From: a virus | DNA length: 64,000 nt | Strand: one strand, 5' to 3' | Virus record (IMG/VR): IMGVR_UViG_3300028610_001991 | Part shown: one piece after another, positions 13,957 to 61,330 of the stretch | How the letters are laid out: each line of letters starts with the position of its first letter | Numbering within the stretch: the stretch's first letter is position 1 | The notes under the pieces: model-generated | Seen by the model: the letters and a program-made list of their open reading frames with translations, nothing else | The model's database searches: none | What the model was told of the DNA's origin: nothing | Made by a program: the position numbers and the translations under genes

Positions 13957-13958
13957 TC

Positions 13959-14007
13959 AAAAAAGTACTTAACTTTTTTTACAAAATGAGGATATATAGT
14001 AGTAGAG
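13959..14007 (+). promoter_or_regulatory. 49-bp repeated regulatory element, copy 1
   Basis: Identical to 25480-25528 except for 1 base; contains AAAAAAGT-N5-ACTTTTTT palindrome and TATAGT. Confidence 0.75.
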
Positions 14008-14034: not shown

Positions 14035-14706
14035 ATGCCAGTCAAGATAAAAATTCCAACTTTAAAGTCATTAAAACAGAATGCTAAAAGAACAGTTACT
14101 AAGTACTATGTTGAAGTTAATAAGCTGTTAAAGGAGTATGAGTCTAAAGATGCTCCTGCTTCAGCTAACCTGCAGTTTCATTTAGATAGGTTGATAAAAA
14201 GATACACAACGAAATCACTCGATACAATAGATAGTTACTTTAAACACAAAGGTACTGTCACTTGTCCTAAATGTAAGAAGAAGGTAGATACTGTTATTGT
14301 ATCAAATTTTAGTACACGGTGTCCTTTCTGTGTTAATCTTAATTGGTTAGACCTCGTATCTACAGTAGGGAAAACTCCGGAGGGGGCATCAAAAACAGTA
14401 GCTTTTTCTTGTCATATTAAAGACCCAAAACATAAAGAAAATAACATGGTTATTAAGGGCCCAAGACAATCACTATTGTACTGGATATTAAATAAAATAT
14501 CATTTGGAAAAATAAAAAAGAGGTATAGTCGGTTCGGTTATTTAAAAATATATGCTAACCCGGGTATATTAAAAAACGCTAAGGAATTTGATAAAAAGTA
14601 TTTAGTTGTAGTTGGCGCAACACCAAAAGAATTAATAGTAAAATATTTCGGGGACGTACAGATGACAGTAACAAAACAGGTAGAAGATATGAAAAAGTCT
14701 AGGTAA
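14035..14706 (+). CDS. hypothetical protein with two CxxC pairs (Zn ribbon)
   Basis: CPKC...CPFC; GGAGGG RBS. Confidence 0.7.
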   Translation: MPVKIKIPTLKSLKQNAKRTVTKYYVEVNKLLKEYESKDAPASANLQFHLDRLIKRYTTKSLDTIDSYFKHKGTVTCPKCKKKVDTVIVSNFSTRCPFCVNLNWLDLVSTVGKTPEGASKTVAFSCHIKDPKHKENNMVIKGPRQSLLYWILNKISFGKIKKRYSRFGYLKIYANPGILKNAKEFDKKYLVVVGATPKELIVKYFGDVQMTVTKQVEDMKKSR

Positions 14707-25400: not shown

Positions 25401-25481
25401 TATTTAAACTCAGATGTTGATTTTCCTGTTGATATAGAGGTGTATGAGAGGTGTTGGGGCGGAAAAAAAGTAAATATATAA
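22437..25481 (+). CDS. family A DNA polymerase with N-terminal degenerate family-4 UDG-like domain and 3'-5' exonuclease
   Basis: Exo motifs YDVET, QNGIFD, YNAMD; polymerase motifs DLSQAELR, RYDAKATSFGIPYG, QVHDS. Confidence 0.93.
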   Translation: MEEKTLCFGCDRSKNRYCKMDAVTHYDKQDGVMLIGSFPDESAAINNTHFYQEYRMLLDNILLEEKAGIDHYKVIYTYACKCRLKGYDKGPSLSQLRLCRQRTWEEIKKYKPKLVIAMGKEAMALFKNTDQGIMLIRGTGETYSDDIISGVTVCYTSGLNIFDVKKSSAGKSEDWKRDERNLMYSDFEWIGKVYKEPIYLHPQQALNFKTNYVVLKNDDTLEKYKEALDKIENDNRGIISYDVETRSLIDITILCLSITLIPGEAYVFPLLKERVVNQVKVDMYNKSIKMDSNGKKPLIDDKGKVLTTLKKKNGGISVRGYTYAALPDYFGEEYIIENKKVRKYVCDRLKKILTNPNIKKVTQNGIFDIHAVRHTFGIDVQGWSDDTMLMYSMIDEESIRGLKAMADMYIPRLRGYDHTLSSYIKKNKIKDRIELPYTTMQGPYNAMDTDATLSLYWQFKSIIIDRDPKDWDFYKRYAMRLQLIMYGVEKRGVYLDYKFIKSKKEELTQKMKDMAIPIIDFVSGSGIKRFKGLTYDNIDLVTGRMDKRTKECPAGFKVEGNTDVSDVLIAVGVCLKDKTPKGTYKQSGDALKQFLDHKVAGKFIQDVIGYREISKKNAFLIDYAKKLKGKDRLYARFTVHGAKTGRFSVKEPNLQQIPRDGDVKNVIVAPKGYHLVQVDLSQAELRILAHYADEISMKQVFKGFTATCSGAKDGYVFIKDKTAGDMNFFFAIKNLRDGEYYCFDSFKDRPDLIHVLGRMLLEKSGDKDFKIASDNVENKQWIHPLTPDEVNKVFLPGDSLDTGSGDIHMFIASQINNKVIWKVIKEERYDAKATSFGIPYGTTEVGLAYRLNKSIEEAKMLIALVFGKFPKIKQYIDDTITAAQLTARHNGGIGIVKTELGRKRHLLDIVDRNPRRRAQARRQAVNFRIQGTCHDLMVNHTIRVDEELKKRKSGAYIVNQVHDSLLFYCPKKETKGFISWIKPIMEIQYLNSDVDFPVDIEVYERCWGGKKVNI

Positions 25482-25528
25482 AAAAGTACTTAACTTTTTT
25501 TACAAAATGAGGATATATAGTAATAGAG
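25480..25528 (+). promoter_or_regulatory. 49-bp repeated regulatory element, copy 2
   Basis: 48/49 identical to 13959-14007; sits upstream of the SSB/RecA operon. Confidence 0.75.
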
Positions 25529-46975: not shown

Positions 46976-47256
46976 TGGATACTACGGATATAAAATTAAT
47001 CGGAGATATACTGCAGGAAGTTAAAGAAAAAAACATAGCTGCTATTATTGTATGGGACGTTGCGTCTAATAAGTTTAAGGTTTTAAAAATGCCTGTCGAT
47101 AAAATACATAATTTAAGACAGAAGATGGGAATAGATAACTAACTTGGTTTGGTCAACCTCACGAAAAAATATGCACATGACCATTTATATATCAGTAACA
47201 TACTAAAAATGAGTATGCACTGAACGCATAATTAAAAGCATAAAAGGAAAAGGTTT

Positions 47257-54394: not shown

Positions 54395-54643
54395 ATGAAA
54401 AAATCAATTGAGGATGTTTTAAGAAAAGAACTAGGTAGTATTCATGACTCTGGTAAGTTAAGAGATATTGTAATTATTCTTAGTGGTTTATTACTACAGG
54501 ATATGAAAGCGGTATCTGAAAAATTTACAGAACTTAAGAGACAGTTACAAGAAAGCCCTAATAAAGAAGATGCATCTTTTATACGGTTTTTAACTGTACT
54601 ACTATCTCTTGCTATAGGTAATATGGCTAAAAGAAAAAAATGA
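54395..54643 (+). CDS. hypothetical protein
   Basis: ORF. Confidence 0.5.
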   Translation: MKKSIEDVLRKELGSIHDSGKLRDIVIILSGLLLQDMKAVSEKFTELKRQLQESPNKEDASFIRFLTVLLSLAIGNMAKRKK

Positions 54644-54933
54644 AAAATTATCTAGGCACTAAAGACGTATATAAGCTTTTACGCATTAGTAAATCAGCCA
54701 TTAATAACTACGTAAAAACGGGCGTATTTAAAGCAAAAAAGAAAGATCCTTTTGGAAAATCGATTAGGGTTTATACATGGGAAGATATACGGCAATTAGC
54801 TTTATTAAGGTACGGACCTATAGTTACTAAGGAATTTATAATCAAATGTCCTTACGGTACCTGTAAAAAGCCAATGAAGGTCTCGCTATTATACTTAGCA
54901 TATGAAGAATTAAAAAGTAAAAAGTATATTTAA
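54640..54933 (+). CDS. MerR/excisionase-type HTH protein
   Basis: YLGTKDVYKLLRISKSAINNY...RVYTWEDI. Confidence 0.7.
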   Translation: MKNYLGTKDVYKLLRISKSAINNYVKTGVFKAKKKDPFGKSIRVYTWEDIRQLALLRYGPIVTKEFIIKCPYGTCKKPMKVSLLYLAYEELKSKKYI

Positions 54934-55187: not shown

Positions 55188-55194
55188 AATATAC

Positions 55195-55735
55195 ACAAGG
55201 GCAACGATACTGACACCCTTGCAAGAAAACGGACAGTAGAGGAAAAACTTCTTCTGGTATCACGGCAGTCGAGAAGCCAAGTAAACAGAGAGGATAAAGG
55301 AGGTTAAACCCTCCTCCACGCGAGAGCCGCGTTAGGATCAACTGGTGGTTGCTGAGGGATTGCGCATAACCGATGTAATTGACTGCCACGTTTTATTATC
55401 TAGTAGAGCGGACGATATCCATCCTTACTAACGTAAGGAGACAGAGGCGAGTTCATAGAAATATGTTCCGGATTTTCTATGCTCTATAAAGATAGAGGCT
55501 TTTGTGGTTTAGCCTACTGTTCAATTAAACACTCCCTCTTCAGAAACGTGGGCTACGTTTTTGGCGGTTTTCAAGGTTTGTCTGTATCAAACCTTGGTTA
55601 TGGAAAAAGGGAGATTTGTAACTTCCTACTATGATGGCTGAGGGTGTCTTGCTGCCGGTGAGGAGTTCTGCAGAATTTCAAGACACGGATGGATCTACTG
55701 GGAAACCGGGGAGAATGCGGCCCGATGCCATGTCT
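55195..55735 (+). ncRNA. candidate large structured non-coding RNA (about 540 nt), family unassigned
   Basis: No credible ORF; at least 10 hand-identified helices, including long-range ones; GAAA tetraloop. Confidence 0.65.
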
Positions 55736-55749
55736 TTATTTATGTTATT

Positions 55750-55992
55750 ATGATTATAAATAAGAAACGTATCTTTTGGATCTTAATATGTGGTTTGTGG
55801 GTATTTAATATTTATATGCTCTTTTTTAGAAGAACACAGCCGCAAGAACACGTTATTAAGTTTACCAATATTGAGGATTTACGAAAAGAAGATCCTGAGG
55901 ATCCTCGCATAAAAGAATTTGAAGAAATAATTGAAGAATGGAGGCCAATAATTGAATTGAATATTAGAGCATGGATTAAATCAAATGAATGA
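55750..55992 (+). CDS. small single-pass membrane protein
   Basis: N-terminal TM helix. Confidence 0.5.
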   Translation: MIINKKRIFWILICGLWVFNIYMLFFRRTQPQEHVIKFTNIEDLRKEDPEDPRIKEFEEIIEEWRPIIELNIRAWIKSNE

Positions 55993-56012
55993 GGAAATTA
56001 TATGAGTCACAA

Positions 56013-56041
56013 TTGCTTTTACTTGATTTATGTTGTATACT
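56013..56041 (+). promoter_or_regulatory. sigma70-type promoter
   Basis: TTGCTT-17bp-TATACT. Confidence 0.65.
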
Positions 56042-56067
56042 TTATTATCTTATAAAAGGAGGAAACT

Positions 56068-56226
56068 ATGACTGATGAAGAAAAAAACGATGACGCTCTG
56101 GAAGAAACTGCAGACGATACTGTAGAGGAAGGAACTACAGACGATAAGTCTGCTGACTATGATGATGAGTCTGCTGATGATGAGTCTGCTGATGATGATG
56201 ATGAATCTACAGATGATGATGAGTAA
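56068..56226 (+). CDS. ultra-acidic 52-aa peptide (not in + strand track)
   Basis: AAAGGAGG RBS, upstream promoter; 29/52 residues are D/E. Confidence 0.75.
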   Translation: MTDEEKNDDALEETADDTVEEGTTDDKSADYDDESADDESADDDDESTDDDE

Positions 56227-56249
56227 ATAGAACAACGAGGAATAACATA

Positions 56250-56600
56250 ACATTTTTACCCAGTCGTTATAGACGTAGGTTCAAACCAAACTGGGTAAAT
56301 AAAAGCTGTGACTGAATAACTGATGTAGTGTGAGTAAGGTATATACCACCCTGAGGAAATGCAGGGTAAAAAGCTTACTTAGCTTGGTATGGTAGTTCTC
56401 TGTGGAAATTAAGGTATTCTCTTTTATAAATGGACCAATTTATAAAAGAGAAGTCGGCACGTATGGATATACTCTACTCTACCGTGTCCGTGGGGGTAAA
56501 GCCCTTCTCCATTTATTTCTGGGACGTACGCGACTTCCAGAAGGATGACTGAAAATTTAACTGCAGACTTAACTTGTAGGTAAAATGACAATCCTATCGG
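56250..56600 (+). ncRNA. candidate structured non-coding RNA (about 350 nt), family unassigned
   Basis: 10-bp, 8-bp, 15-bp and several 6-bp stems; no ORF in track. Confidence 0.55.
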
Positions 56601-56628
56601 CTTTTTATTCTAAAGGACAACACTAAAA

Positions 56629-56856
56629 ATGGAATTAATAACTTATAACAATAACAGACCTTTTATTAAAGACACAAATATATCTCTAGCAGAGATTGCT
56701 AAAAGCTTACAGGGAGAATTGTCGATCGATAACATTTTAAAATCGTTCCCTAGCTTAACCCTTAGTCAAGCAATTGTAGCTTTTCTCTTTTGGAAAAACA
56801 GTAAACATGAAAAACTGTTTACTGAAAATAGTGAAGCTGTAGCTAATATAGCTTAA
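56629..56856 (+). CDS. DUF433-like (antitoxin-type) DNA-binding protein
   Basis: RPFIKDTNIS...SIDNILKSFPSLT pattern. Confidence 0.65.
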   Translation: MELITYNNNRPFIKDTNISLAEIAKSLQGELSIDNILKSFPSLTLSQAIVAFLFWKNSKHEKLFTENSEAVANIA

Positions 56857-56883
56857 ATATATAATAAATAGGAGTAGAAAAAG

Positions 56884-57162
56884 ATGTCAGAAAACACAAA
56901 CATTTATGTCGGGAATATCCCTTATTCCGCAGACGAAGGATCGTTGAGGGAGCTATTCGTTAAACACGGAGAGGTAGAATCTGTGAAGGTAATAACTGAC
57001 AGAGATTCTGGTAAATCTAAAGGATTTGCCTTTATTAACATGATGGATGAAGAAGGAACTCAATCTGCAATTAGTAATCTACACGAATCTGATATGGACG
57101 GTAGAAAATTGGTTGTAAATATTGCCAGGCCCCGTAAACAGCAGGAAAATAGAAGCTATTAG
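56884..57162 (+). CDS. RRM (RNP-1) RNA-binding protein
   Basis: RNP2 IYVGNI, RNP1 KGFAFINM, LVVNIAR. Confidence 0.95.
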   Translation: MSENTNIYVGNIPYSADEGSLRELFVKHGEVESVKVITDRDSGKSKGFAFINMMDEEGTQSAISNLHESDMDGRKLVVNIARPRKQQENRSY

Positions 57163-57373
57163 AGGCGGCATTTATCTTTAGGTAAAGAGCTTAAACCCAG
57201 CTATAAGAAATTACTCACACACAAATTTATCAAGGATATATCAAGACAGTATTACCATGTTTGCAAACATAGGTATGTACCCGGGACTATCAGATACAGC
57301 ATCTGTAAGAGTAACTGTATATGATAGTTCCGGCTGTGTTGATATGTATCTCTACATTGAGCCTACTGAATAA
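57163..57373 (+). pseudogene. start-less, frameshifted paralog of 57694-57972
   Basis: RHLSLGKELKPSYKKLL...VYDSSGCVDMYLYIEP aligns to the intact copy, with a deletion/frameshift near 57300. Confidence 0.8.
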
Positions 57374-57497
57374 TTATACTGTGGGCTTCCCCTGGCCACT
57401 GACAATGGAAGCATCTGTACGGGCAGCCATGAAGTTTCCCCAGCCCGTGAATAACCGGATATCAGGGTGGCTTACTATATAATTATTTAGGACAGAA

Positions 57498-57704
57498 GTG
57501 AGGATTTATTTTATGAGTTGTGACCATCACATAGAAAAGAGAAATTTTATATGTATTAGGGATTCTGCTATTGTTTATAAATGTAGCTGTGGTATGTATG
57601 TTTTTAATTCTACTCCAGAGGGAGTAGTAGCTGAGGATAGTGACCGTATGACAGATACTTTGCGGAATGTGCTGCAGGCAGTAAAAGGTATGTTTGGTGG
57701 GTAG
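57498..57704 (+). CDS. small Cys/His-containing hypothetical protein
   Basis: CDHH...C...CSCG. Confidence 0.45.
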   Translation: MRIYFMSCDHHIEKRNFICIRDSAIVYKCSCGMYVFNSTPEGVVAEDSDRMTDTLRNVLQAVKGMFGG

Positions 57705-57972
57705 ACATTTATCTTTAAGTAAAGAACTGAAACCTGGCTATAAGAAACTTCTCAAGCATAAATTTGTTAAGAACATATCCAGACAATACTACAGTGTTTG
57801 TAAACATAGATATAAATCAGGCACTATTCGTTATAAAGCGGATACATTTTCCGGGATTCGGGTAACCGGTTATGATAGTTCCGGTTGTGTTGGTATGTAT
57901 ATCTACATTGAGCCTAAAGATAAAATTGAAGATGTAAAAAGATTTATAGAAAAAGAATGGAGGGTAGTATGA
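57694..57972 (+). CDS. hypothetical basic protein
   Basis: ORF; has a decayed paralog upstream, which supports coding status. Confidence 0.65.
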   Translation: MVGRHLSLSKELKPGYKKLLKHKFVKNISRQYYSVCKHRYKSGTIRYKADTFSGIRVTGYDSSGCVGMYIYIEPKDKIEDVKRFIEKEWRVV

Positions 57973-58136
57973 CTGACGAAGAAGAACAAGAAATTGCTTT
58001 TCAAAAAGAATTAGATGATAGTCCACTATCAGGTCCTCCTCAGAGTGTAAAGTGCGGTGGTAGTGGGTCCGGTTTAGCAATAGCAATAATGTTGGGAGGT
58101 ATGGCTTTAATTATATTAAAGCTGTTTTCCTGGTGA
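57969..58136 (+). CDS. small tail-anchored membrane protein (55 aa, not in track)
   Basis: Acidic N-terminus, C-terminal TM; overlaps the upstream stop. Confidence 0.5.
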   Translation: MTDEEEQEIAFQKELDDSPLSGPPQSVKCGGSGSGLAIAIMLGGMALIILKLFSW

Positions 58137-58164
58137 TATATTCTACCCAGAGACAGGAGTATAA

Positions 58165-58640: not shown

Positions 58641-58724
58641 GCCAGAATGGTGGAATAGACAGATACGCTTATCTCAAAAGCAGACGGGGGTAAACTCATG
58701 CCGGTTCGAGACCGGCTCCGGGCA
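58641..58724 (+). tRNA. degenerate tRNA-Leu(CAA), probable pseudogene
   Basis: TGGTGGAA D-arm, CT-CAA-AA loop, variable arm, perfect GCCGG-TTCGAGA-CCGGC T-arm; acceptor and anticodon stems mismatched; no CCA. Confidence 0.65.
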
Positions 58725-59123: not shown

Positions 59124-59838
59124 TATACTTTAATCGAAACTTTTCATAGGAATCTTTACTGTTAATATAATCGTACACATATGTTTTGTAAGAATCTCTT
59201 TTATATTTAAGTCTTTTTATATGAGTAAAGTCCTTTTTATTAAATAGATCAGGAAAATCTATTTCAGCATTATGCTTTAAACAAATCTTCTCAACCCTAT
59301 CAGAACTTTTACGATAATCAGTCGTGTATTTTTTATAACTACTTCTTTTATGTTTAAGTCTTTTTATATGAGTAAAATCGTCTTTATTAAATAAATCAGG
59401 AAAATCTCTTTTCGCAGCTCTTCTATACCCTATAGTCTCAAGCATTGTAGTTGAATTTTTATATGCTTGTTTATATTCTTCGTAAGTATCTTTAACATAT
59501 TTACGTAAATAGTTAAAATCATTTGTATTAAACTGATCAGGGAAATCTTTCTTAGCATTATCTTTTAGAGAACTTCGTTCACTATACTTAATACTCTTAT
59601 TATAATCTATAACGTATTTTATATAAAAATCCCTTTTATGTTGTCCTTTATTTGCCCACAATTTAAACTCGTTTGTAATTAATCTTTTTAGATATTTGAA
59701 AGAAAGTATATGATTCTTATTTAACATAGCTTCTGATTTATTCCGAGGTACAGTATAATTGACAAGATTATGTGAGTATTTAATTAAATTAGTTATATAT
59801 ACTAATGATTTCTTATCTTCTTTATTAAACTGTCGCAT
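59047..59838 (-). CDS. basic repeat protein (four AxxDFPxxFNxxDF repeats)
   Basis: Repeat period 47-49 aa. Confidence 0.7.
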   Translation of the reverse strand: MRQFNKEDKKSLVYITNLIKYSHNLVNYTVPRNKSEAMLNKNHILSFKYLKRLITNEFKLWANKGQHKRDFYIKYVIDYNKSIKYSERSSLKDNAKKDFPDQFNTNDFNYLRKYVKDTYEEYKQAYKNSTTMLETIGYRRAAKRDFPDLFNKDDFTHIKRLKHKRSSYKKYTTDYRKSSDRVEKICLKHNAEIDFPDLFNKKDFTHIKRLKYKRDSYKTYVYDYINSKDSYEKFRLKYNAERDFPEQFNRDDFISKGRNRANK

Positions 59839-61330
59839 GTCGCCTCTTTAATATATCCATTAATCTATTTAGTTCAGGGTACCTAGATTTAATAAAATTA
59901 CCATTTCTAATCATCATATTAATTTCTTTAATAATGGCTCTTGCTGTTTTCTCGTTTTTGATTTCTTTGATAACTTCAGTTAATTTTTGACGAGAATTGA
60001 TAGCTTCTTGTATATGGGGTAGTAATTCTTCATCCATTTGGTATGTACATCCGTCACCTAATTTATAAACTGCTATCTTTTGTCCTACTCCTAGTTTAAT
60101 TTGTGAAACTAAATTGGTGTTAGAAGCACTTGATATAAATCTTAATATTTTAGTAATTGCATGATGGGCACTTGCAAAATCTAATATAATAGCTTCTTCC
60201 TTACCTAACATAGCTCTCAAGGCACGACCTAGTCTTTGAAGAAATGTGGCAAAATTACTAACTGGTGTCAAAAATAGAATACCACCGACTGCTGGGGCAT
60301 TGTAGCCTTCTGATACTATATTAAGGTTTACTAAAACTCTGATCTCTCCTTTTTCTAATCTTCGTACAGCTTCTTCATTATGACTGTCCGAGTACTCAGA
60401 TAAGATAACTTCTGCTGGAATACCTGCTTCATTTAATCTATTAGTAATATACTTGGCGTATTTTGTATTACCTGCAAATGCTATAGCTGAGGATCCTTCT
60501 GGAAAATACTTATTAACATTATTTAAAATAGCCTGAACACGTTCTTCTATAAAAAGGGTTTTATCTCTATCTTTCTTTTTGTACTTTTTCTTCTCAATAT
60601 ACATCTCGTCTTCAAGTAGCGAGTCTGTGTTATCGTGACATTGGATAAATCTATAATTAGATACCCATCCCGCCTTTATAGCTTCTCCAAGTGTAACATT
60701 GATTAAAGCTTTATTATTAAACAAACTGGTAACAGATTTATTATCCGCTCTGTCAGCTGTTGCAGTCATTCCTAATTTAAAACTATCAAAATAAGATAAA
60801 ATGTTAAGCCATGTGTCCGCTACTGAATGGTGGGCCTCATCTGCAATTACTAATTCAAATTCGTCTTTCTTAAATCCGTGTTTATATCTATATAGGGTGG
60901 GTACCATAGCAATAGTGACAGATTCATTGAATCTATAGTATGTGCCACTTCTCATAACAGAACTCTCTATACCTAAGATAAAGAATAGTTCTTCCCAAAG
61001 TGAGTACATTATAGATTTACGATGTGTCAGTATAAGTGTTTTATGTGATTTATTTTGTTTTAATAACCATTGGATGACCATTGCGGCTATTCGTGTTTTA
61101 CCAAAGCCAGTGGCTCCTAAGATAAGAGCACCATGCCCTATTAGTCCTTTATGTTGTTTATTTCTTTTCTTATAATAAGTCTTATATTCTTTAGTAAACC
61201 CTGTTAGTGCCTTCTTTTGTTTAGTGTAAGGCGGTGGCACAACTCCTTGTTTTTTGTAATAATCTAAAGCTTGCTCTTTTAAAGCATCTTTTTGTCTTTG
61301 ATTTGCTTCTTTCCATGTTTTTTGTTTCAT
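59825..61330 (-). CDS. superfamily 2 helicase (RadD/YejH/Res-subunit-like)
   Basis: GATGFGKT, IADEAHH, TAT, SEGYNAP, QRLGRALR. Confidence 0.9.
   Translation of the reverse strand: MKQKTWKEANQRQKDALKEQALDYYKKQGVVPPPYTKQKKALTGFTKEYKTYYKKRNKQHKGLIGHGALILGATGFGKTRIAAMVIQWLLKQNKSHKTLILTHRKSIMYSLWEELFFILGIESSVMRSGTYYRFNESVTIAMVPTLYRYKHGFKKDEFELVIADEAHHSVADTWLNILSYFDSFKLGMTATADRADNKSVTSLFNNKALINVTLGEAIKAGWVSNYRFIQCHDNTDSLLEDEMYIEKKKYKKKDRDKTLFIEERVQAILNNVNKYFPEGSSAIAFAGNTKYAKYITNRLNEAGIPAEVILSEYSDSHNEEAVRRLEKGEIRVLVNLNIVSEGYNAPAVGGILFLTPVSNFATFLQRLGRALRAMLGKEEAIILDFASAHHAITKILRFISSASNTNLVSQIKLGVGQKIAVYKLGDGCTYQMDEELLPHIQEAINSRQKLTEVIKEIKNEKTARAIIKEINMMIRNGNFIKSRYPELNRLMDILKRRHATV

Follow-up and report, generated by a model that had tools for sequence, protein, structure and literature searches.

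Two non-random hairpins and a shared intergenic box in a 402-nt gene-free spacer of a large uncultured phage

In the gene-free spacer at 56227-56628 of a large uncultured phage, two hairpins are non-random, while the remainder of the spacer shows no folding in excess of shuffled sequence, and its 3' end carries a box that recurs in two other intergenic gaps. With a rough probability of 0.42, we propose that the spacer lies in a gene-poor accessory region and is built of separate punctuation elements, not of one large RNA. A first-pass annotation had described much of the spacer as a single candidate structured RNA of about 350 nt. Its observations on the sequence are partly confirmed and its interpretation is overall partly supported; the available tests do not bear out the reading as a single structured RNA of 350 nt. 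Throughout, the window denotes the whole stretch of DNA that was analysed (64 kb), and the features discussed are collected in Table 1.

Table 1. Positions of the spacer, its neighbouring genes, the hairpins and the shared box in the window.
Feature	Position	Strand	Description
Repeat copy 1 (about 49 nt)	13958..14006	+	contains the box; upstream of the gene at 14035 (helicase operon)
Repeat copy 2 (about 49 nt)	25479..25527	+	contains the box; right after the DNA polymerase stop, upstream of the SSB/UvsX-like operon
Acidic peptide gene	56068..56226	+	52 aa, highly acidic, strong Shine-Dalgarno AAAGGAGG; upstream neighbour of the spacer
Gene-free spacer	56227..56628	.	402 nt, from the acidic-peptide gene to the DUF433 gene; from ORF lists and Pfam/PHROG scans
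Hairpin 1	56253..56301	.	10-bp Watson-Crick stem, 56255-56264 / 56290-56299, 25-nt interior
Small hairpin ACCCTG / CAGGGT	56348..56367	+	6 bp, 8-nt loop; arms at 56348 / 56362; pair probability 0.86
Hairpin 3	56417..56452	.	perfect 15-bp A/T-rich palindrome TTCTCTTTTATAAAT, 6-nt centre GGACCA; arms 56417-56431 / 56438-56452
Hairpin TTCTGG / CCAGAA	56517..56542	+	arms at 56517 / 56537, extendable to about 9 pairs; pair probability 0.90
Shared intergenic box	56561..56588	+	CTGCAG-ACTTAAC-TTGTAG, then GT-AAAATGA; 41 nt ahead of the DUF433 start codon
DUF433 protein gene	56629..56856	+	75 aa; PF04255, E = 3.6e-7; downstream neighbour of the spacer
RRM (RNA recognition motif) protein gene	56884..57162	+	92 aa; PF00076, E = 4e-20

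Genomic setting of the spacer

The window is a section of a large phage genome, and a 187-kb contig encodes proteins identical to the local ones. Within the window, a replication and recombination block encodes a DNA polymerase, SSB-like and UvsX-like proteins, SbcCD, an ExoV/Dda-like helicase, a ParM-like protein and UDG. A helicase gene occupies 59825-61330. Genes on the plus strand are closely packed until about 55.1 kb, and the spacer is the second-longest gap within the 58.8-kb block of plus-strand genes. Coding density drops sharply at 55188-58164: these 3 kb contain about half of the non-coding DNA of the block (gaps longer than 50 nt), including its two longest gaps, of 562 nt and 402 nt. 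On its upstream side the spacer borders a unit composed of a promoter-like site, a strong Shine-Dalgarno sequence and the gene for the 52-aa acidic peptide, for which a Pfam search returned no match. On its downstream side lies the DUF433-RRM gene pair, and identical DUF433 and RRM proteins are encoded on three contigs.

Signs of decay accompany this drop in coding density. A decayed, frameshifted duplicate of the 92-aa gene at 57694-57972 occupies 57169-57375 (79-89% identity to 57706-57916) and begins in frame right behind the TAG stop of the RRM gene. Over the 12 kb covered by the fold scan, z is most extreme at 57201-57425, with values of about -6 for the plus strand and -4.5 for the minus strand, and a 26-nt imperfect inverted repeat is formed by 57366-57391 and 57465-57490. 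Further downstream, a tRNA-like relic on the plus strand at 58641-58724 has a perfect T-arm (GCCGG-TTCGAGA-CCGGC) and a long variable region; it scores 19.3 bits with RF00005 (threshold 29, E = 0.89), is not called by ARAGORN, and overlaps a 49-aa ORF, probably a spurious one, just ahead of the point where the plus-strand and minus-strand gene blocks converge.

Coding potential and known RNA families

The spacer is non-coding. Six-frame translation with table 11 gave no ORF longer than 55 aa, and reading TAG as Q or TGA as W added none. Ten frame fragments compared with PHROGs and Pfam at E values up to 1 gave no signal of a protein remnant, and by eye no small ORF led by a Shine-Dalgarno sequence was visible in the spacer.

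A cmscan of the whole window against Rfam 15 at gathering thresholds returned no match, the models searched including ROOL, GOLLD, HEARO, riboswitches, ribozymes, group I and group II introns and tRNA. When the spacer was scanned with a relaxed limit of E = 10, the sole matches were noise from microRNA and plastid-UTR models, on Hairpins 1 and 3 and with 15-18 bits vs thresholds of 54-90. By this comparison, which the first-pass annotation had suggested, no known Rfam family explains the stretch. A tRNA or tRNA-like element within the spacer was considered and rejected, since ARAGORN found no tRNA or tmRNA in the whole window and RF00005 did not match the spacer at E values up to 10. The string GGT-TCAA-ACC, earlier called T-loop-like, is indeed present, but it can form a stem of at most 3 bp (pair probability 0.27) as compared with the 5-bp stem and 7-nt loop of a T-arm, and no tRNA model matches it.

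Two further candidates were set aside. An origin of the spacer as an internal copy or mobile element was rejected on the basis of blastn against the window and the fetched loci, which produced only chance matches of 12-26 nt. The motif GGGTAAA, occurring three times on the plus strand within 210 nt, was dismissed as a post hoc observation that lies within the multiple-testing expectation.

Two hairpins exceed chance

All strings quoted in the first-pass annotation were located at their positions by direct reading of the sequence, and the folding analysis separated two of the stems from the others. Hairpin 1, with its arms TTTACCCAGT at 56255 and ACTGGGTAAA at 56290, begins 29 nt past the stop codon of the acidic-peptide gene. 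Folded alone (56245-56305), it reaches -15.0 kcal/mol with a z of -3.77, a stability equalled by none of 200 shuffles, and its 10-bp stem has a pair probability of 0.95 in the Boltzmann ensemble. The stem had been described as closing two mini-hairpins; the stem itself stands, whereas the inner mini-hairpins do not form with appreciable probability (about 0.26).

Hairpin 3 is located 120 nt beyond Hairpin 1 and 177 nt ahead of the DUF433 start, and no other perfect hairpin of the window matches its 15-bp stem in length. Folded alone (56410-56460), it reaches -17.0 kcal/mol with a z of -6.09, again with none of 200 shuffles as stable, and the pair probability of the stem is 0.99. To place both stems against chance, perfect stems were counted in 1000 dinucleotide shuffles of 56250-56612. 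A 15-bp stem was reached in none of the 1000, confirming the perfect stem that had been reported for 56417-56452. Any stem of at least 10 bp was present in 1.9% of the shuffles, and a second stem of that length in none.

No U-tract adjoins either hairpin. Behind Hairpin 1 the sequence reads ACTGGGTAAATAAAAG and behind Hairpin 3 it reads GTCGGCACG, the tails on the other strand are A-rich or mixed, and a terminator scan lists neither hairpin. The earlier statement that the long stem is not a simple terminator, made because no U-tract lies behind it, therefore holds. With regard to rho-independent termination, both hairpins provide the stable stem-loop and neither provides the U-tract. Both long stems consist purely of Watson-Crick pairs, with no G-U pair or bulge, and are thus uninformative on the strand and on whether RNA or DNA is the acting form.

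Each 15-bp arm of Hairpin 3 contains the -10-like string TATAAAT. The best -35 candidate near the stem is TGGAAA, which matches at three of six positions with a 16-nt spacer, and a scan for sigma-70-like promoters (at least 9/12) found nothing adjoining the hairpin. Elsewhere in the window, the half-site of the stem has only weak matches with 2-3 mismatches.

The remainder of the spacer folds like shuffled sequence

Outside the two hairpins the spacer is without excess folding. Stems of at least 6 bp number seven, compared with 3.2 +/- 1.8 in the shuffles, and since 4.5% of the shuffles reach seven, we regard this excess as not beyond chance. The whole 401 nt fold with a z of -1.84 on the plus strand and -1.49 on the minus strand (-101.4 vs -87.8 kcal/mol). 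Separate segments gave z values of +0.36 for the middle (56300-56416), -0.42 on the plus strand for the 3' domain (56453-56560) and -0.78 for 56510-56628. In a sliding 150-nt fold scan of 50-62 kb, windows over the spacer were no outliers, and several coding windows were lower. The centroid structure retains local hairpins only.

The other stems of the first-pass annotation fared unevenly. The small hairpin ACCCTG/CAGGGT had been placed inside two enclosing stems. It is well predicted, although within chance given the z of its segment (56300-56416), and neither enclosing stem is supported: the long-range pairing of AAGCT at 56303 with AGCTT at 56381 has a pair probability of 0.00, a local AAGCT-UACUU-AGCTT hairpin being favoured (0.75), and the pairing of TGAGTAAG at 56331 with CTTACTTA at 56374, which includes one G-U pair, has a pair probability of 0.14. 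Similarly, of the two stems said to follow the palindrome, TTCTGG/CCAGAA is predicted with high probability, yet within chance as judged from the z of 56453-56560, and GGCACG at 56456 with CGTGTC at 56483 (one G-U pair) reaches only 0.23. A single structured RNA of about 350 nt is not what these results describe, as about two thirds of the length folds like shuffles, the stems that would join domains have probabilities of 0-0.23, and the z of the whole region is -1.84.

A box shared with two operon leaders

Comparison of the intergenic gaps of the window identified a core, ACTTAACTT-N6/7-AAAATGA, which occupies 56567-56588 in the spacer. Exactly three instances of the pattern ACTTAACTT-N(6-7)-AAAATGA are present in the 64 kb, all of them on the plus strand and between genes, as against none in 100 shuffles. 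Two of the occurrences lie in a longer repeat whose copies 1 and 2 are identical over at least 37 of about 49 nt; the third, at 56567-56588, is partial and a variant of the box of this repeat. From the end of the box to the next start codon the distances are 46, 28 and 41 nt across the three copies. Although the similarity was noticed after the fact, a chance origin of a shared 9-mer and 7-mer whose spacing differs by one base is very unlikely.

Since the box stands 28-46 nt ahead of a start codon at all three places, it is assigned to the leader or promoter of the DUF433-RRM pair, of which the box at 56561-56588 is probably a part. The segment 56561-56628 is therefore taken as the control region and leader of this pair and not as a piece of a large RNA. 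We consider the box a candidate phage-specific promoter or leader box; it shows no canonical -35/-10 spacing. It ties the DUF433-RRM pair to two replication/recombination operons, which hints at a common regulator.

At 56561-56588 the box can form a weak 6-bp hairpin with two G-U pairs, and a weak hairpin around ACTTAAC is possible in each of the three copies. Among the 37 CTTAAC sites in the window, the three box copies own the longest pairing flanks, with 6-8 pairs. Copies 1 and 2 favour another pairing register, with 8 bp and a 5-nt loop. As the preferred register differs among copies, the box hairpin was not counted as covariation, a proposal that this difference weakens. A possible fourth variant, itself weak, is TATGC-ACTGAAC-GCATA at 47214-47240, ahead of the ExoV-like gene, and is absent from its own MFE fold.

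A scan of GTDB genomes with the 23-nt box gave one exact match, in an intergenic position of the Prevotella sp. MAG JAUNSB010000063.1 (L010:3753-3775). This locus has no further DNA or protein similarity to the window. Strong Shine-Dalgarno sites are atypical of Bacteroidota, and because they are present in every gap of the window that was examined, the match is probably due to chance; it could otherwise hint at a regulatory sequence of host type.

What the spacer may be

We favour a spacer made of separate punctuation elements. Hairpins 1 and 3 are stand-alone stem-loops, which most likely attenuate read-through, protect the 3' end of a short acidic-peptide transcript, or do both; that they act on transcripts is what we infer. 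The last 70 nt or so (56561-56628) would comprise the control box, the leader and the Shine-Dalgarno sequence of the DUF433-RRM pair, and the 100-nt stretches between these elements, in which no structure or coding signal was detectable, may be filler or decayed DNA. Several observations support such an arrangement. The two hairpins beat chance while the remainder of the spacer does not; Hairpin 1 has the position expected of an element at the 3' end of the acidic-peptide gene; the box is confined to three sites in the window, each of them 28-46 nt ahead of a start codon and on the coding strand; the stem-loops of PeSL (promoter-early stem-loop) cassettes separate small gene units of T4-type phages in a comparable way; the neighbourhood is of low coding density and accessory character, with a decayed duplicate and a tRNA-like relic; and the gap ahead of the gene at 14035 contains an 8-9-bp hairpin without a U-tract, followed by the box, thus repeating the hairpin-then-box order of the spacer. 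The proposal is weakened by the lack of a U-tract at both hairpins, by a length of 400 nt that is large for mere punctuation, by pure Watson-Crick stems that would suit a role at the DNA level equally well, by the absence of any sigma-70-like promoter (at least 9/12) beside Hairpin 3, by hairpin sequences that, unlike those of PeSLs, are not repeated in the window, and by the post hoc recognition of the box similarity. If it is correct, the spacer represents routine phage gene punctuation of annotation value only, marking the end of the small acidic-peptide unit and the start of the DUF433-RRM unit.

The strand-neutral, purely Watson-Crick character of both stems would also agree with palindromes that act on DNA, either bound by a phage protein of two-fold symmetry, through which the DUF433-RRM pair would be controlled, or serving as recombination seams at which gene units are swapped. 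The HTH protein encoded at 54640-54933 and the DUF433 protein itself are candidate binders; DUF433 (PF04255) is a small antitoxin-type domain, and antitoxins generally autoregulate via palindromic operators. The TATAAAT in each arm of Hairpin 3 suits an operator over a promoter. However, operator half-sites are seldom as long as a perfect arm of 15 bp, no recurrence of the half-site was seen in the window, and the palindrome stands 177 nt ahead of the DUF433 start with no good -35 near it, so that we regard a DNA-level function as rather unlikely. A decaying, functionless stretch, left over from lost genes or tRNA genes and carrying hairpins that arose as recent accidents, for example by template switching, appears to us about equally improbable. 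The frameshifted duplicate at 57169-57375, the sub-threshold tRNA-like relic and the lack of a fold or coding signal over most of the spacer are what such decay would leave, but a 15-bp palindrome together with a 10-bp stem within 400 nt is far beyond chance and, under neutrality, would soon be eroded, and no protein or tRNA remnant was detected within the spacer itself.

It is the discrete non-coding RNA of the phage, with a length of roughly 300-350 nt and perhaps a scaffold, decoy or regulator working with the adjacent RRM protein, that would make the stretch of interest, and only if an RNA bound by this neighbouring protein proves real. A long gene-free gap next to an RRM protein gene, a content of stems of at least 6 bp somewhat above that of the shuffles (7 vs 3.2) and the lack of any known family to account for the stretch are in its favour. 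So is the reliance of several minor stems on G-U pairs that are valid on the plus strand only, together with the slightly better fold of that strand; yet G exceeds C over the whole plus-strand block, and G-U pairs on this strand are expected anyway. Against a discrete RNA stand the whole-region z of only -1.84, the resemblance of the middle and 3' thirds to shuffles, the probabilities of 0-0.23 for the stems joining its domains, a promoter and terminator scan that found no convincing promoter after the acidic-peptide gene and no terminator, and a 3' end that coincides with a box common to operon leaders. We consider it unlikely, and a shade more so than either a DNA-level role or decay. More speculative still, and highly improbable in our estimate, is a specific form of this idea, in which a hitherto unseen phage RNA of about 330 nt, transcribed from the acidic-peptide promoter or from its own, would use the two hairpins to dock the RRM protein, and possibly the DUF433 protein, in an RNP that manipulates host RNA metabolism or defence.

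Comparison with known systems

Among documented phage elements, the promoter-early stem-loop (PeSL) cassettes of T4-type phages offer a close layout. In these cassettes, stem-loops between small ORFan genes are documented terminators or attenuators (Arbiol et al. 2010, PMC2839356); overlap with a -10 box is possible, and the cassettes are found in plastic phage regions (PMC2839356). PeSLs have repeated motifs, strong promoters of the sigma-70 consensus type and stems that are frequently rich in G and C (PMC2839356). Like them, the hairpins described here are stem-loops in the gaps that separate small orphan genes, within a part of a large phage genome that is plastic and poor in genes, and the succession of promoter, small gene, stem-loop and next control box is the same. 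Unlike PeSLs, the hairpins are A/T-rich and unique within the 64-kb window, no consensus promoter adjoins them, and the element that does repeat is the separate box ACTTAACTT-N6/7-AAAATGA. Because there is neither a strong sigma-70 promoter beside the hairpins nor a repetition of them in the window, we do not claim that they belong to the PeSLs.

Intercistronic hairpins without U-tracts define and protect the 3' ends of phage mRNAs, and in lacking a U-tract between cistrons the two stem-loops resemble the processing hairpins of T7 early mRNA. The RNase III sites of T7 are about 20 bp or longer and irregular, with internal loops. The stems in the spacer, in contrast, have 10 and 15 perfect pairs, less than two helical turns, and no coaxial extension that would bring them to the size of an RNase III site (about 20 bp or more) was present in the MFE or centroid structure. 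With ROOL (RF03087) and GOLLD (RF01998), the spacer shares the character of a long non-coding phage gap near a tRNA-like sequence. It differs from both in that no model matched even at E = 10, in that no multi-domain fold exceeds chance, and in that the gap is only 400 nt long.

Searches for relatives and minor observations

The DNA had no blastn match among GenBank phages, and tblastn of the helicase, RRM and ExoV proteins against the same phages gave a best identity of 42%. The longest related contig (L009) has none of the local small genes. IMG/VR searched with three neighbouring proteins returned no match; scanned with four DNA patterns, it yielded only L007 and L008, which were rejected as relatives: both matches are to an unrelated hairpin whose arms coincide with the 10-bp arms by chance. 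For the DUF433 protein, a search among proteins of near length recovered only the protein itself, and among the matches listed in JGI metagenomes there were at least six generic homologues of 33-51% identity, the contig of the window not being among them. The RRM protein has a single close relative, P0003, encoded on a 973-bp contig in ENA and 88% identical, all remaining matches being at or below 60%. P0003 is the sole close relative of anything nearby, and its 973-bp contig may span part of the spacer.

Inside the DUF433 gene, the minus strand carries a terminator-like element at 56799-56824, a hairpin of 9 bp with TTTTTCC behind it. The best promoter-like site of the region, likewise on the minus strand (56890-56861, 10/12 match), is situated 40-60 nt upstream of this element. 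The promoter-like site and the terminator-like hairpin could be the signature of a short antisense transcript or could have arisen by chance.
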